From a virus, in the IMG/VR virus record IMGVR_UViG_3300032116_000065, positions 37,319 to 101,318 of that record: 64,000 nucleotides of DNA. One strand, 5' to 3'. This document shows positions 21,598 to 63,889 of this stretch, one piece after another. The notes beneath the pieces were generated by a model, which saw only the letters and a program-made list of their open reading frames with translations, searched no databases and was not told the origin of the DNA. Both the position numbers and the translations under genes were made by a program. Positions within the stretch are counted from its first letter, which is position 1. The number at the start of each line of letters is the position of its first letter.

Positions 21598-24500
21598 TTA
21601 TCCTCCAAATACAATAGCCATTGCTATTGCTTTTCCTGTTCCGATTCCTGCTGCGCCACTTGGACCAGATGGACCTGTTGGTCCAGTCGAGCCAGTTGGT
21701 CCTTGTGGACCCTGTGGACCAACTGCCATCAAATTCGATAGATTTCTAAAGTGCGTAAATGTTACAACATCATTCACTTGCGCTGCAGTGTTTAGAGTGA
21801 CGATGTTATTTGTAACTTGATAATGAATGTTTGGTGTAAGAACCAAGCCATTCTTTGACACAACCAAAGATGCAATAGAAGTCACATTTTGCGTCAATGT
21901 AAATGTATTCGTATTTGATACGACAGTATTCGATGTTACTGAAATTTCTGTATTGCCAGTCGGACCAGATGGACCTGTTGGACCAATTCTTGGAACAACA
22001 GCATCAACCCACTGAGTTGAGTTGCCATCATTGTAATAAATCTTCAATGAACCAGTGTTACTATTCCACCAGAAGTCTTGATTCGCACGACCACCTGTTG
22101 GGGCTGTTGCAGAAACAGTGACGTTTGCGTTGCCGTCACCACCACCGCCACCACCAACACTTGTAAATGCAACGTTGATAATTCCAGAATTGTTTGAAGT
22201 TGAAACAGTGACAGTTGCAGTATTAACGAAATTGATATTGCTAGAGACAAGAACTGATCCACTGTTTGTGGTGACTGTCGTTGCTGGACCCTGTGGTCCT
22301 TGTGGACCTGCGCTACCAGTAGCACCCTGTGGTCCTTGTGGACCAGTGTCACCAGTTACACCTTGTGGACCTTGAGGTCCTGTTGGACCTTGTGGACCCT
22401 GAGGACCTTGAGGTCCTGTTGGACCTTGTGGACCAGCAGGACCAAGATCGCTGATGTTGATTGTTCCAGCCATCGATGCGTGGTACTGACAGACATAATA
22501 TAATGTGCTTGGTGCGTCATAAGGAACATCGAATGTGATTGTGCCTACTTGAGCGCCATTGTTTGTAACACCAGTATTGTAAATGTTACCAGAACTGTAC
22601 GCACCAGAAACAGACTGAATCCAGAATGGATGCCCACTTGCATTTACACTGAATGTGTAAGTAAACCCACGCAATAAATTTAGAGTTGGATTATTTGATC
22701 CATCAATTGTGTATGCACTTGCACCACTATTTGTTACAGTATATGTTCTTGATCCGCTAACACCTTGTGGACCTTGTGGACCAGTAGCACCAGTTGATCC
22801 TTGTGGACCCTGTGGTCCTTGCGGACCTGCGTCTCCAGCAACACCTTGAGGACCTTGAGGACCAGTGACGCCTTGAGGACCTTGAGGACCTTGAGGACCA
22901 GTGACGCCTTGAGGACCTTGAGGACCCGAATCGCCGATTGTATAGACTACAATTGATGTATTATCTTCTGGTGCTGCGGTGAATACAATATTTGCACTAG
23001 CGATATTATAATCTACATTCTCTTGTAGCACACCATCAACAAAGACAAGTGTATGTGCTTCACTAGTTGGCGGAACAGTCAGAACGAATGTTGCGGTGTT
23101 TCCATCACCAGTAAATTCATTGCGAGTAGAACCAGGATTACCAGTGCCAGTTCCTGATGGACCAGTCGGACCAGCAGGACCAGATGGACCTTGCGGTCCA
23201 GCGCTACCTGTAGCACCTTGCGGACCTTGCGGACCTGGATCACCATTAAATCCTTGAGGACCCTGTGGTCCTTGTGGTCCTTGAGGACCTTGTGGACCAG
23301 ATGGACCAACAACACCCTGTGGACCTTGCGGACCTTGTGGTCCTTGCGAACCTTGAGGACCTTGTGGACCAGTGTCACCTTTATCACCAGTACGAACAAA
23401 TGTAATAATAACATTCGTTGAGTTTGATAGTGTGGTTACACCTGATGTGTGAGCAATAGGAACAGCGAAATAATTAGGAAGTTCGGCATGCAAACCTGTG
23501 ATATTAAAGAATGCAAATTCAAGAACATTTGCAGTGTTTGCAACTTTAAATGTTCCCTTAATTGAGGAAGTTGAATCGTCAATCGTTTGCAAATAATTAA
23601 ACACATTTGCTGTAGATTGATCAATGAAATCAATAAACAATGTATTTGCTGAAGATAATGTTACGTTATTAAACGTAAGATTTGCAACGCCAGGGTCTGT
23701 ATTGGATGTACTTGTTAGGTAAGTATAATCAAATGTTGCACCACCAAAATCACCAGTATCACCTTTTACGCCTGAAGGACCAATTGGTCCTTGCGGACCA
23801 GCAACACCTTGTGGTCCTTGCGGTCCCTGTGGACCAATATCACCTTGAACACCTTGTGGTCCTTGTGGACCCTGTGGACCTTGCGGACCAGATGGACCCT
23901 GAGGACCAACTGCACCTGATGGACCTGACGGACCATCATTACCCTGCGGACCAGATGGACCAGAAGGACCAGAAGGACCTGTTGGACCAGCAGCGCCAGC
24001 AGCACCTTGAGGACCTTGTGGACCAGAATCACCAATCGTGTAAACAATAATTTGAGTATTGCTATCTGGTGCAGTGGAGAAAACTACGTTTGCACTGGAA
24101 ATATTGTAAGACGAGTTTGGTTGAACAATACCATCAACAAAAACGATTGTATGTTCTTCACTAGTTGGTGGAACTGTAAGTGCAAATACCGCTGTATTTC
24201 CATCACCAGTAAATTCATTTCTTGTAGAACCAGGATTACCTGTACCAGTTCCTGATGGACCTGTTGGACCAGCTACACCACTTGGTCCTTGAGGACCTTG
24301 TGGACCAGTTGGTCCAGCATCACCATTTACTCCAGATGGACCAGTTGGTCCTTGTGGACCAGAGTCACCAATCGTGTAAACAATAATTTCATCATTGTTT
24401 GCAGGAGCAGTCGTGAACACAATATTAGCATTTGCAATATTATATTCGGCATTTCCTTGCAAAATTGTTCCAACAAAAACGAGAGTGTGTTCTTCACTTG

Positions 24501-25140
24501 TTGGTGGAACAGTTAAAACGAAGTTAGTTGTATTACCATCACCAATAAAGATATCTCTGGTTGATCCAGGATTACCTGTACCAGTTCCTGATGGACCAGT
24601 CGGACCAGCCACGCCACTTGGTCCTTGAGGACCTTGTGGACCAGTACCACCACCGCCTCCAGCAAGAGATTCGAATGCAACGTTAACAACACCATTTGCT
24701 GTTGTTGTGACAGAAACAGTTACGTTAGCTGTATTGACAAAGTTGAATGTATTAGCGCGAATAGTAGTTCCGCTATTTGCTTGAGCAAAGACGTTACCAG
24801 TGAGATCTGTAATGGGCGCAGCATCCCATGTAAGCATACCTGCTTCATCAGCACCAAGAGTTGCAACAAGAGGAGAACCATTTGCATTTCCGTAATAGAT
24901 GTAAATGGTGTTGCTTGAAACGTGAAGATCTTTCCAAACAGCCGTGTTTGATCCAAGGCTATATGCATTATTGGAAGATGGAATAATATTCTGTGCGAAT
25001 ATTGTAGAGCCAACAGTTAAGTTGCCACTGATATTCGCAGATTGAACGTTGGTGATATTACGACTTGAATCGACAACAATGGTATTGGCTACATCAATAC
25101 CATGTTTAACGCTGAAGGTCTTATTAGTCGTATTTGCCAT
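21598..25140 (-). CDS. Long collagen-like tail fibre (1180 aa) with repeated GDGNT domains and a cupredoxin-like domain
   Basis: Extensive GPQ/GPS/GPT triplets; GHPFWIQ...[13 protein letters not shown]; ends [12 protein letters not shown]. Confidence 0.85.
21655..24650 (-). repeat. In-frame collagen Gly-X-Y (GPQ) tandem repeats and three copies of a [23 protein letters not shown] module
   Basis: 9-bp periodic ggaccttg(t/a/c) arrays; module copies near 22930-23160, 24025-24255 and 24360-24590. Confidence 0.85.
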
Positions 25141-25145
25141 ATTAT

Positions 25146-25238
25146 GTTAGAAAACGATGGGCAAATACACGCATGCACTCACATGCGCAACTCAGACCTC
25201 ATCGGATTCACTATCCTCCAATGGATTTACTTTCCAAC
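25146..25238 (-). promoter_or_regulatory. Highly structured ~95-nt 5' leader of the fibre gene containing an SD-preceded uORF (MRSELRM*, 25202-25179)
   Basis: Outer stem GUUGGAAAG/UUUUCUAAC, hairpin GGAU-AGUGA-AUCC, stem CGAUG/CAUCG, hairpin GCGCAUG-UGAGUG-CAUGCGU. GGAGG precedes the uORF ATG; the main ATG has no SD. Confidence 0.65.
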
Positions 25239-25240
25239 TA

Positions 25241-25247
25241 TATTTAT
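25241..25247 (-). promoter_or_regulatory. T4-type late promoter (ATAAATA)
   Basis: CATAAATA overlapping the upstream stop, directly before the structured leader. Confidence 0.6.
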
Positions 25248-27757
25248 GGGACTATGCCATAACGTACAGCGCGGATTGTATTAATTGATTGTGTAGCGTT
25301 GAACAACAATCTCACATTTCCACTATCAATGTCCGCATTGAAAGTACCCAATGAAGCACCAGTTTGAATTGTACCGTATTCAGTAATCCAAATATTTGTG
25401 CCTTCATGAACGAGGATAATTTCAGTAGTGTGATACGTTGAACCACTATTGGCTTGTACAAAGTATTTTGCAGAAGCAAGATCGGTTGTTGGGAAAATAT
25501 CGAGCACAACTTGACCCGAAGCAGCTGTCGTTACAGTGTTAGTTGTAACCTTCAATGCTTCAACAGTTAAGGTATTCGTTACATTTGCATTTGCAACTTC
25601 AAGACCTTCACCAGCAGTGTTGATAGTCAACTTGCCAGTCATCGTATCGCCAGCACGATCGACCTTGACGTCGTTTATCCACTTGACTGAGTTTGCAGTC
25701 GCAGCGTTTGCAGTATCGGTAGAAGTAATCGAATCAACGAGTTTCGTGACACCAATTACTGTCGTAGATGCAATGTTTGGTGTAATCGTTACTGTCTTGA
25801 CATTTGCAGTCGTGACTTCAGTATTAGATAGACCAAGACCTGTTACAATTGTCTCAACTTTAGTATTGGCTTCGTCATAGGCTGCATTGGCTTGGCTGTA
25901 TGCCGCATTTGCTTGCCCATACGCAGCGTTAGCCTGTCCGTATGCAGCATTCGCCTGACCATAGCCAGTATTTGCTTGTCCATATGCGGCATTCGCTTGA
26001 CCGTAAGCAGCGTTGGCTTGAGCATAAGCATCAGCAACAGCAGCGCCAGTCGTACTAAAGGAGATATTCGCATTTCCATCAGCATTATCGATAACACTGA
26101 CTTGAATACTTGCAGTATTGATAAAGTTTAGGAATTTATTCGACAACTCACCAGCGCTGTTTGCATAAACACGAACCGTGTTTGCAGAGGTGTTGGCTTG
26201 AGCATAAGCACCATTGGCTTGACTGTACGCACCATTAGCCTGTGCAAAGGCACCGTTTGCTTGACTGTATGCACCATTTGCCTGAGCATAAGCACCATTG
26301 GCTTGCGAGTACGCACCATTGGCTTGAGCATATGCGCCATTTGCCGTGTCGCGTGCTGTATTGGCTTGAGCGTATGCATCGTTGCCAGTAGTGCGAGCAG
26401 TATTCGCTTGGAGATATGCAGCATTCGCTTGATCATTAGCAATCGTTAGATTGGCTTGAGTCGCAACTGTATTACCTTGCAACAAGAGAGATGCAGCATT
26501 TACATTTGCGCGCAACCATGCAAGATTTGCAGAAGCAACATCAATTACGTTATTGCTTGGTTCTGTTGCATAACCATCAAAGATGTAGAATACATTATCA
26601 GAGGCATGACGAATAAAGCCAGAATGAAGATTAGTTGTACCACCATCGTCGCTGTAGTGACCAACGAAACCAATATCAACAGCGTCAGAAGTTGAATTCG
26701 TTGATAGCTGGATAATCGAGTCATTAACTCTCACGGTCGCAACGTTGATATACGTTGCATTACCTGTTAGATACAAGTTACCTTGAACGGTAAGGTCACC
26801 AGAGACTGTACCACCAGTTAGGTTAAGTTTTAGATTTGCTTCACCGTATGCTGCATTCGCTTGCCCATAAGCAGCATTTGCTTGCCCATAAGCGGCATTT
26901 GCTTGCCCATAACCAGCATTTGCCTGAGCGTAACCAGCATTTGCTTGCGCATACGCATCATTTGCAGTGCCTCGTGCGGTATTTGCTTGGGCATATGCAT
27001 CATTAGCAGTCGTGCGGGCTGTATTTGCCTGGCCATATGCATCATTTGCGGTATCACGTGCTGTGTTCGCTTGAGCATACGCATTGTTGCCAGTGGTGCG
27101 CGCAGTATTTGCTTGACCGTATGCGTCATTCGCAGTGTCGCGAGCAGTATTGGCTTGTTCGCGCGCAGCATTTGCTTGATCATAAGCAATACCACCGCTA
27201 CTACGAATAACAAGATTTGCATTAACACCATCATCCAGCAACTCGAGAGTTACTGAGTTTGTGTTTTGTAGGAAAAGTTTCTTATTATTAAGAGTCAGAC
27301 CACCAACTGTAACAGAAACAGTATTGGCAGAAACATTGGCTTCGGCATAAGCAGCGTTGGCTTGACCGTAAGCAGCATTAGCCTGTCCATAAGCGGCATT
27401 TGCTTGACCATAACCAGTATTGGCTTGATCGCGGGCAGCGTTTGCTTGGGCGTATCCAGAATTAGCCTGAGCATATGCATCATTCGCAGTACCACGAGCA
27501 GTATTCGCTTGAGCATATGCGTCGTTTGCTGTGTCGCGAGCAGTATTTGCTTGCGCATAAGCGTCGTTAGCAGTTCCACGAGCTGTATTGGCTTGATCAA
27601 TAACGTTTAGACCACCCGTTGTTACGATTGTATTCGCATTAATCGTATGAAGGTTGGCAATATTAACGTTCGAAATATTACGATTCGAATCGAGAATTAT
27701 AGTATTAGCAAGGTCAAGACCTGTCTTAACACTAAATGTTTTATTCATTGTCGCCAT
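25244..27757 (-). CDS. Long fibre protein with AY(A/G)QAN(A/T) heptad coiled-coil repeats
   Basis: N-terminus homologous to 21598..25140 (NKTFSVK.G.D.ANTI..DS.RNI.NV); C-terminal domain shared with 27819..28793. Confidence 0.85.
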   Translation of the reverse strand: MATMNKTFSVKTGLDLANTIILDSNRNISNVNIANLHTINANTIVTTGGLNVIDQANTARGTANDAYAQANTARDTANDAYAQANTARGTANDAYAQANSGYAQANAARDQANTGYGQANAAYGQANAAYGQANAAYAEANVSANTVSVTVGGLTLNNKKLFLQNTNSVTLELLDDGVNANLVIRSSGGIAYDQANAAREQANTARDTANDAYGQANTARTTGNNAYAQANTARDTANDAYGQANTARTTANDAYAQANTARGTANDAYAQANAGYAQANAGYGQANAAYGQANAAYGQANAAYGEANLKLNLTGGTVSGDLTVQGNLYLTGNATYINVATVRVNDSIIQLSTNSTSDAVDIGFVGHYSDDGGTTNLHSGFIRHASDNVFYIFDGYATEPSNNVIDVASANLAWLRANVNAASLLLQGNTVATQANLTIANDQANAAYLQANTARTTGNDAYAQANTARDTANGAYAQANGAYSQANGAYAQANGAYSQANGAFAQANGAYSQANGAYAQANTSANTVRVYANSAGELSNKFLNFINTASIQVSVIDNADGNANISFSTTGAAVADAYAQANAAYGQANAAYGQANTGYGQANAAYGQANAAYGQANAAYSQANAAYDEANTKVETIVTGLGLSNTEVTTANVKTVTITPNIASTTVIGVTKLVDSITSTDTANAATANSVKWINDVKVDRAGDTMTGKLTINTAGEGLEVANANVTNTLTVEALKVTTNTVTTAASGQVVLDIFPTTDLASAKYFVQANSGSTYHTTEIILVHEGTNIWITEYGTIQTGASLGTFNADIDSGNVRLLFNATQSINTIRAVRYGIVP
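25880..27600 (-). repeat. Four blocks of in-frame 21-bp heptad repeats (AYGQANA / AYAQANT / ARDTAND)
   Basis: Blocks near 25880-26030, 26190-26440, 26840-27190 and 27340-27600. Confidence 0.85.
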
Positions 27758-27772
27758 TTAGAATCTCCTGGT

Positions 27773-27805
27773 GCCGACTATGAACGAATCGGCTTTTATA
27801 TTTAG
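27773..27805 (-). promoter_or_regulatory. Late promoter (CTAAATA, 27799-27805) followed by a 5' hairpin GCCGAUU-CGUUCAU-AGUCGGC before the SD
   Basis: Sequence visible upstream of the ATG at 27757; SD CAGGAG. Confidence 0.6.
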
Positions 27806-27818
27806 TAAAATTTGCGTT

Positions 27819-63813: not shown

Positions 63814-63889
63814 ATGGGGTGGAGGAGGTGAACCCTCACGATGAGCAGTCTGGCGGATAGTACCGTCGGCAATGAGTGCCGCACCCCAT
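63814..63889 (-). ncRNA. Candidate 76-nt multi-branched structured RNA (cloverleaf-like, not a canonical tRNA)
   Basis: Closing stem AUGGGGUG/CACCCCAU, hairpins CGGCA-CUCAU-UGCCG, CGG-UACUAU-CCG and GAGG-GUUCA-CCUC; starts 6 nt after CTAAATA (63895-63901); GC-rich intergenic sequence. Confidence 0.6.

Follow-up and report, generated by a model that had tools for sequence, protein, structure and literature searches.

A candidate two-state translational control element in the leader of a collagen-like fibre gene from a freshwater T4-like phage clade

Introduction

How is a fibre gene translated when its own start codon has no Shine-Dalgarno (SD) sequence and the strongest SD nearby stands in front of an out-of-frame reading frame of seven codons? 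This question is raised by a leader within the window analysed here, a stretch of 64,000 nucleotides that forms part of a 101-kb viral contig (about 60% complete) in which the minus strand carries nearly all genes. The source is a freshwater T4-like phage. To our knowledge, very few cis-regulatory RNAs have been described in T4-type phages beyond T4 itself. For T4, no riboswitch or trans-acting RNA has been characterised (PMC3014915). A first-pass annotation of the locus, made from the letters alone, proposed a translational attenuation or re-initiation switch within a folded leader and suggested an RNA encoded at 63814-63889 as its probable partner. We compared the leader with those of related phages and propose, with about even confidence, that it is a cis-acting, two-state translational control element of one shallow clade of freshwater T4-like phages.

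Results

A structured leader between two fibre genes

The leader separates two genes on the minus strand that are paralogous and encode fibre proteins with similar N-termini; the N-terminus of the downstream, 1180-aa protein is also homologous to fibre genes in all related loci. The genes, and a promoter-like box at their junction, are as follows.

25244..27757, minus strand: 837-aa fibre gene, the upstream neighbour, with its stop codon TAA at 25246-25244
25241..25248, minus strand: T4-type late-promoter-like box CATAAATA, invariant in all eight long-class leaders (defined below)
21598..25140, minus strand: 1180-aa collagen-like fibre gene, downstream of the leader, with its ATG at 25140

The gap between the genes is 103 nt (25141-25243, minus strand) against a median of 6 nt in the genome, and is the sole gap of at least 80 nt between 7171 and 44662, which bears out the earlier description of about 100 nt of non-coding sequence in a tightly packed region. 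The segment 25130-25250 folds with a predicted energy of -35.2 kcal/mol (z = -3.6), a value equalled by none of 200 shuffled sequences. Taken with the block conservation and covariation described below, this upholds the view that the leader is a selected, structured region of translational control.

The box CATAAATA overlaps the 837-aa gene's stop codon and, from what is known of T4 late promoters, would presumably place the start of the transcript near 25235. The evidence that a late promoter lies at the 5' end of the leader, as had been proposed, is one of homology: relatives have a terminator, then TATAAATA, then the hairpin that we call H, and in distant relatives the sequence (T/C/G)ATAAATA occupies the equivalent place, after an intrinsic terminator and 12-20 nt before H. 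The gene strand of the whole contig (G000) has 11 copies of ATAAATA and the opposite strand has none; this strand bias was the only yield of a genome-wide search for promoter motifs. Contigs assembled from four freshwater RNA-library runs cover the upstream gene and enter the leader only as far as 25216 and 25236. None of them lies on 25114-25215, one is a paralogue from a related phage, and contigs of this kind give no start, end or strand.

Searches of other collections returned little of a comparable kind. A blastn search with 1.2 kb around the leader gave no matches among cultured phages; the nearest cultured relatives of the neighbouring fibre protein, found by protein search, are T4-like Synechococcus phages that match in one domain only, and the locus of the protein match in Synechococcus phage S-SM2 is without a comparable leader. 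An Rfam scan produced no matches in the window, those around the leader being at chance level (E > 1), and a tRNA scan found nothing.

Two further observations concern the surroundings. The 837-aa paralogue has its own leader (27758-27818, minus strand; loci L131-L133), which is ordinary by comparison and is kept in three relatives; it contains an A/T-rich box, TAAATATAAAA (27804-27794), a 5-bp hairpin GCCGA/UCGGC (27793-27773) and AGGAG (27769-27765) situated 7 nt before the AUG. The heptamer UAUGGCA has two copies on the minus strand, one close to where the upstream gene ends (25262-25254) and one at the fibre start (25142-25134), and either can be paired by CCAUA (25249-25245).

Leader classes among related phages

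The comparison set comprised about 40 related contigs, gathered by pattern and protein searches, in all of which an upstream fibre gene is followed by this fibre gene, and which fall into three junction classes. Long leaders, of 98-111 nt, are represented by eight distinct sequences including that of the window (upstream protein 87-100% identical); short leaders, of 42-49 nt, by about 16 distinct sequences (upstream protein 67-76% identical); and the leaders of distant relatives measure 101-129 nt (upstream protein 34-53% identical) and open with a canonical intrinsic terminator, behind which stands TATAAATA, CATAAATA or GATAAATA. A looser DNA pattern, TGGAGG-N9-CCGATGAGG, gave mostly chance matches, its look-alikes L052 and L034 lying inside coding sequence.

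As judged from these sequences, the long class is one shallow clade. It follows by parsimony that the insert described below is derived in this clade, and also that part of the invariance of a 28-nt block containing H, which is identical in eight of eight long-class leaders, reflects recent common descent. The 5' spacer, the hairpin P4 and the linker vary within the same class.

An ancestral ribosome-binding hairpin and start codon

The 5' half of the leader contains H and, beginning in its 3' arm, the short upstream reading frame.

25200..25223, minus strand: hairpin H, the conserved ribosome-binding hairpin of the fibre gene, with stem CAUUGGA/UCCGAUG and loop GGAUAGUGAA (5' arm 25223-25217, loop 25216-25207, 3' arm 25206-25200)
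25179..25202, minus strand: mini-ORF (uORF) AUG AGG UCU GAG UUG CGC AUG UGA, encoding MRSELRM*, with its TGA at 25181-25179

Among 15 relatives the H stem is 82.9% paired against 59.4% in shuffles, none of 500 reaching the observed value, and compensatory changes are found at six of its seven pairs; slid controls gave 30-51%. The stem differs from group to group (CAG/CUG, GAG/CUC, UUUG/CGAA and UUGGU/ACUAA, with CAUUGGA/UCCGAUG in the window), and the loop in all three classes consists of GGA, one to four variable bases and G(U/G)GAA. The first-pass annotation had instead singled out a 4-bp GGAU/AUCC hairpin (GGAU-AGUGA-AUCC) as the element to be conserved. In the short-leader relatives its arms lack complementarity, and the stem that is conserved lies outside it.

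The GGAGG sequence (25219-25215) spans the 5' arm and loop of H, and the AUG of the mini-ORF forms the last three nucleotides of the 3' arm. SD strength was scored against the canonical 16S tail, from which that of the actual host may differ; on this scale the GGAGG block reaches -9.8 kcal/mol and is the strongest SD nearby, the neighbouring fibre gene scores -7.4 kcal/mol, and the fibre AUG scores -1.2 kcal/mol with no SD in the 24 nt upstream, as had been noted before. Such weak starts are no rarity in the phage, where 33 of 101 ORFs score weaker than -4 kcal/mol.

The position of the fibre start in relatives gives the mini-ORF AUG its meaning. In 16 short-leader relatives the fibre AUG lies 0-4 nt after H, and in eight distant relatives it lies within or just after the 3' arm of H, behind the terminator and TATAAATA; outside the clade of the window, every relative's fibre AUG holds the position of the mini-ORF AUG of the window. 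We therefore take the mini-ORF AUG to be the ancestral fibre start codon and, because the same arrangement of H and AUG is found in the relatives, the 5' half of the leader (box 25248-25241, H and the mini-ORF AUG) to be the ancestral fibre leader. The earlier assignment of GGAGG to the mini-ORF thus holds as to the site, which is a genuine ribosome-binding site in that it is homologous by position to the site at which the fibre starts in every outgroup phage. GGAGG lies 12 nt before the mini-ORF ATG, which is a long spacing.

Several loci among the relatives are of interest in themselves. Distant loci L175, L178, L180, L182, L187, L192 and L195 present a terminator, a TATAAATA-type late promoter, H with the loop GGAAAGGGAA and the fibre AUG, and the loci of the distant relatives are good outgroup material for defining H as an RNA motif. 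There are also relatives in whose leaders a hairpin encloses the stop codon at the end of the upstream gene, with a covarying stem (GGCAUUAU..AUAAUGCC, GGCAUCGU..ACGAUGCC and GGCAUC..GAUGCC); in these leaders the fibre AUG and codon 2 can be paired by GGCGUUG, which masks the start there too.

The mini-ORF

The out-of-frame, seven-codon mini-ORF is present as first described (ATG at 25202, TGA at 25181-25179), and in the window its ATG lies 62 nt upstream of that of the fibre. Across the long class it has seven codons in five variants and three (MRS) in the other three, and the distance from its AUG to the fibre AUG is 62, 69 or 56 nt; neither the peptide nor the length is conserved across the eight variants. 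Two features are constant, namely that the AUG is base-paired in both of the competing folds described below and that the reading frame terminates in every case at P4 or shortly before it. Translation of the mini-ORF is probable, since the family's own ribosome-binding site precedes it at the family's own spacing. Frameshifted reading from its AUG into the fibre gene was considered and rejected, because over the distances of 62, 69 and 56 nt stop codons intervene in every case.

In all long-class leaders the mini-ORF starts with AUG AGG (25202-25197), in which AGG also reads as part of an SD-like GAGG. AGG encodes arginine and is seldom used in many bacteria, and early AGG codons, like minigenes of two or three codons, can provoke drop-off of peptidyl-tRNA.

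The insert and its pairings

In the long class, 56-69 nt are inserted after the old AUG. The insert is single-copy in the genome and in all loci, by which a mobile repeat is ruled out. Its predicted elements, and the beginning of the fibre gene, are listed below.

25169..25188, minus strand: hairpin P4 (GCGCAUG/CAUGCGU), with the stop codon UGA of the mini-ORF at its top
25160..25168, minus strand: segment b, GUAUUUGCC, the 5' arm of P5, which pairs with the first fibre codons
25155..25162, minus strand: 3' arm of P3, GCCCAUCG, whose partner CGAUG(A)GGU (25204-25196) includes the mini-ORF AUG
25146..25154, minus strand: 3' arm of the outer stem P1, UUUUCUAAC, whose partner is GUUGGAAAG at 25238-25230
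25130..25140, minus strand: fibre AUG (25140-25138) and segment d, GGCAAAUAC (25138-25130), the 3' arm of P5

P4 confirms the earlier placement of the mini-ORF stop in a hairpin. It is predicted at the same place in all eight variants from three unrelated stem sequences. It is not an intrinsic terminator, being followed by GUAUUUGC in place of a U-tract and absent from a terminator scan; canonical terminators do exist in the distant relatives, but upstream of the promoter.

Immediately 3' of P4, 9-12 nt are complementary to early fibre codons in eight of eight variants, forming P5. This pairing, which the first-pass annotation did not include, covaries with the coding sequence in all eight, in four to five different sequence solutions, and its partner shifts among the variants between codons 1-4, 3-5 and 6-8. 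Duplexes of a segment with its own type of partner have energies of -10 to -15 kcal/mol, as against -4 to -6 kcal/mol for cross-type duplexes, and shuffled versions of segment b attain the observed value in 0-19 of 500 trials.

The evidence for P3 is of a different kind. That the start of the mini-ORF can be paired, CGAUG (25204-25200) with CAUCG (25159-25155), was already recognised in the first-pass annotation, and this pairing is part of P3, the consensus structure chosen by RNAalifold. Its octamer GCC(C/U)AUCG is kept amid otherwise variable sequence and the helix is 100% paired in the eight variants, with two compatible one-sided changes and no compensatory ones; as the changes are one-sided only, the pairing is consistent with the data but not proven. 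The 9-bp outer stem P1 fared less well. It is present in the window (25238-25230 with 25154-25146) and does end 5 nt before the fibre ATG, as had been stated, but it is not conserved: across the variants it is 69.6% paired, which is not above shuffles. Its first three bases lie upstream of the predicted start of the late transcript.

Two competing folds

The helices above cannot all be accommodated as simple nested stems. P3 and H share the strand 25206-25200, and since the arms of P3 and P5 overlap by 3 nt and interleave, these two helices either compete with one another or make up a pseudoknot. Folding the leader of the window together with 30 nt of the fibre ORF gives H + P4 + P5 as the structure of minimum energy (-38.0 kcal/mol). 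This structure masks the fibre start and leaves the SD about 75 nt from the fibre AUG; the linear distance from GGAGG to this AUG is 74 nt in the window and 68-81 nt across the variants. In the alternative fold P3 forms a rod with P4 on top, by which 50-60 nt are folded away and the unpaired distance from SD to AUG falls to 5 + 9 = 14 nt in the window. The same spacing of 14 nt is obtained for L142, L134, L139 and L002, and one of 7-8 nt for L003, L004 and L140, the variants with a three-codon mini-ORF. This bridging geometry is likewise absent from the first-pass annotation.

In six of the eight variants the two folds are within about 2 kcal/mol of each other, and the window favours the masked fold by 5-6.5 kcal/mol. 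Because of this clear preference, and of its rod spacing of 14 nt, the fold that brings the SD close to the fibre AUG may be a minor one in the window. Alternative RNA folds of nearly equal energy are common.

Discussion

A proposed mechanism

We have established here the pattern of conservation, that H and P5 covary, that the mini-ORF AUG is homologous to the ancestral start, and what geometry and energies the folds have. On this we build the following scheme, for which we infer which fold is 'on', the translation of the mini-ORF, the trigger of the switch and the direction of the effect. The ancestral half of the leader would comprise the late promoter and H, whose loop displays a purine-rich SD and whose 3' arm holds the old start codon. 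An insertion of 56-69 nt would have parted this ribosome-binding site from the fibre ORF, leaving the old AUG at the head of a mini-ORF of 3-7 codons and the fibre with a new AUG devoid of an SD. In one fold (H + P4 + P5) a leader segment would pair with the early fibre codons and mask the start; in the other (the P3 rod with P4) the insert would hide the old AUG and bring GGAGG near to that of the fibre, and the balance between the two would set fibre synthesis.

The likeliest agent to shift this balance would be ribosomes that load on H and translate the mini-ORF into P4, because they would occupy the strand shared by H and P3 and, in the seven-codon variants, reach the edge of the masking segment. 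From the general size of a ribosome footprint, one ending at the stop codon 25181-25179 would reach only the first 2-3 nt of segment b, and in the three-codon variants the terminating ribosome would not reach that segment directly. A ribosome on the mini-ORF would open P4, as happens in coupling by RNA unfolding (PMC12548453).

A stricter version of this scheme makes the mini-ORF an obligatory device for delivering ribosomes. They would load only at the ancestral hairpin, translate 3-7 codons into P4 and thereby flip the masked fold to the rod, and be handed over across about 40-50 nt to the SD-less fibre AUG, either through an SD-tethered 30S subunit or, in variants with an AUG-stop end such as the window, through a gene-60-like hop from AUG-UGA. 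We hold this version to be rather improbable.

Alternative explanations

The leader could also act through its mini-ORF without any switch between folds, the fibre being reached by re-initiation or scanning at an SD-less AUG 38-47 nt downstream, or the mini-ORF serving as an attenuator; we think this unlikely, though worth serious consideration. Such a model accords well with a mini-ORF that holds the family's ribosome-binding site at the family's spacing and always ends at or just before P4, and with the lack of an SD at the fibre AUG. Coupling by re-initiation is, however, reported to need overlaps or very short gaps (PMC10666635; PMC12548453), and this distance dependence makes plain termination and re-initiation over 38-47 nt and a hairpin less likely. 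The hairpin between the mini-ORF stop and the fibre AUG is stable, the mini-ORF AUG is paired in both folds, and neither the length of the mini-ORF nor its peptide is conserved; such a model, moreover, does not account for P5, which covaries, or for the conserved arm of P3. The displaced reading frame might also be an evolutionary scar, in which insertion or recombination left a relic ribosome-binding site, the hairpins do no more than stabilise the mRNA or terminate weakly, and the fibre AUG initiates by itself. We judge this to be improbable. The shallowness of the clade, the commonness of SD-poor starts in the phage, the A/U-rich surroundings of the fibre AUG and a mildly U-rich stretch after P4 would all suit a scar, but the supposed relic block has remained unchanged while adjacent leader segments diverged into several types, the P3 arm is conserved within variable flanks and segment b tracks coding changes in segment d. 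P4, for its part, does not resemble a terminator, and the insert is single-copy.

Translational repression and autogenous control have precedents in the gp43, gp32 and RegA proteins of T4, and H might be the operator for a phage protein, whether a repressor or an autogenously acting fibre or assembly protein, with the insert only modulating access; the likelihood of this seems to us small. The loop GGA-N1-4-G(U/G)GAA is kept across a very broad set of relatives in which the stem covaries, and the start codon lies in or beside the stem as in the MS2 and gp43 operators, both of which an operator would explain. Against this, the loop spacer varies between 1 and 4 nt, which is easier to reconcile with pairing to an RNA (for example the 16S tail) than with a fixed protein contact, a purine-rich loop placed as an SD would be relative to an AUG is most simply the SD itself, and no candidate protein was identified. 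Least probable of all, in our view, is that the leader is the target of the trans-acting 63814-63889 RNA, as the first-pass annotation had supposed, with the GGUUCACCUCCUCC stretch of that RNA pairing with GGAGGAUAGUGAAUCC. The match of 6 + 8 bp is the best same-strand partner in a genome scan, the RNA is real and widespread with covarying stems, and GUGAAC in the H loop fits GUUCAC better than the canonical GAUCAC of 16S rRNA. The duplex score of -32.6 is nevertheless no outlier in the genome-wide scan, where unrelated sites reach -31.9, -31.0, -31.0 and -30.8, and the complementarity does not rise above the genome background. The CUCAUC/GAUGAG part of the match belongs to an internal, covarying helix of the RNA itself (its CUCAUCG part), the rest is merely an SD against an anti-SD-like CACCUCC, and distant relatives have GGGAA, not GUGAA, in the H loop.

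The 63814-63889 element deserves description in its own right. It is a structured RNA of about 72 nt (minus strand; loci L196-L265) that terminates with GGUUCACCUCCUCCACCCC, which resembles the 3' tail of 16S rRNA, and lies between a stop codon and a small gene with its own GGAG. An exact 19-mer from it is present in 70 IMG/VR viral contigs, and its stems covary (ACGGU/AUCGU, ACAGC/GCUGU and ACGGC/GCCGU); it has no Rfam match, and it is absent from the related viral fragments examined.

Comparison with known systems

Split ribosome-binding sites in T4 are reportedly the subject of Nivinskas et al. (1999) and of Malys and Nivinskas (2009). In genes 25 and 38 of T4, structure shortens the distance from SD to start from 27 to 11 nt and from 22 to 5 nt, respectively (PMC3014915). 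The leader resembles these cases in belonging to a late gene of a T4-type phage, in that a linearly distant SD would be brought near the AUG by structure and, as with the gene 25 arrangement, in having arisen within one subclade. The reduction would be larger, from 68-81 nt to 7-8 or 14 nt, and the bridged spacing of 14 nt in the window exceeds the 11 nt of T4 gene 25. Unlike those of genes 25 and 38, its predicted bridge spans 50-60 nt as a rod with a hairpin, not as a simple stem-loop, and it buries the old start (hence the mini-ORF), a competing fold masking the first codons.

In coupling through a leader ORF and RNA unfolding, as in the ermC and cat leaders, rpmI-rplT and MS2 coat-lysis (PMC12548453), there is likewise a short upstream ORF with its own SD, a downstream start masked by the leader, and alternative pairings that share a strand with the short ORF. 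Both the short ORF with its own SD (-9.8 kcal/mol) and the masked downstream start (P5, 25168-25160 with 25138-25130) are found in the phage leader. The distance from the stop to the downstream start, about 40-50 nt, is also like that in rpmI-rplT, where coupling by RNA unfolding works over +52 nt (PMC12548453). In the phage leader, unlike in these systems, the AUG of the mini-ORF is paired, and stalling that depends on a particular drug or peptide is unlikely, given that the mini-ORF is no longer than 3-7 codons and lacks a conserved peptide.

Masked starts are known from the T4 genes e, soc, 49 and I-TevI (PMC3014915), and as in these genes the fibre start would be sequestered in an intramolecular helix beside a late promoter. 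In the T4 genes the late promoter lies inside the 5' arm, so that late transcripts escape masking (PMC3014915); in the phage leader, by contrast, both arms of P5 lie downstream of the promoter, and P1, the stem that the promoter could truncate, is not conserved.

Translational bypass in T4 gene 60 skips an insert of about 50-60 nt between matched take-off and landing codons. The phage insert is of similar size, and in five variants the last sense codon of the mini-ORF is AUG, the same as the fibre start, with the stop in or at a hairpin. Here, however, the nascent peptide has only 3-7 residues, and the insert precedes the ORF, that of T4 lying within the gene. Bypass of this type across the clade was rejected, since L003, L004 and L140 end in UCG or UCC and lack an in-frame landing codon.

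Significance

The leader opens no new category of mechanism; it unites features of split sites with those of leader-ORF and unfolding coupling in a combination that we have not found described. Within one fibre gene family it brings together a widely conserved hairpin ribosome-binding site and a natural experiment, the insertion of about 60 nt between this site and the gene, followed by compensatory evolution that appears to keep two competing folds, the changes in P3 itself being one-sided only. Its eight natural variants, in two geometric classes, form a compact system for asking how far structure can bridge an SD to a start codon, and whether a leader ORF as small as this one drives such a switch. 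The dosage and timing of tail-fibre synthesis, on which the proposed element would act, bear on virion assembly and host range.
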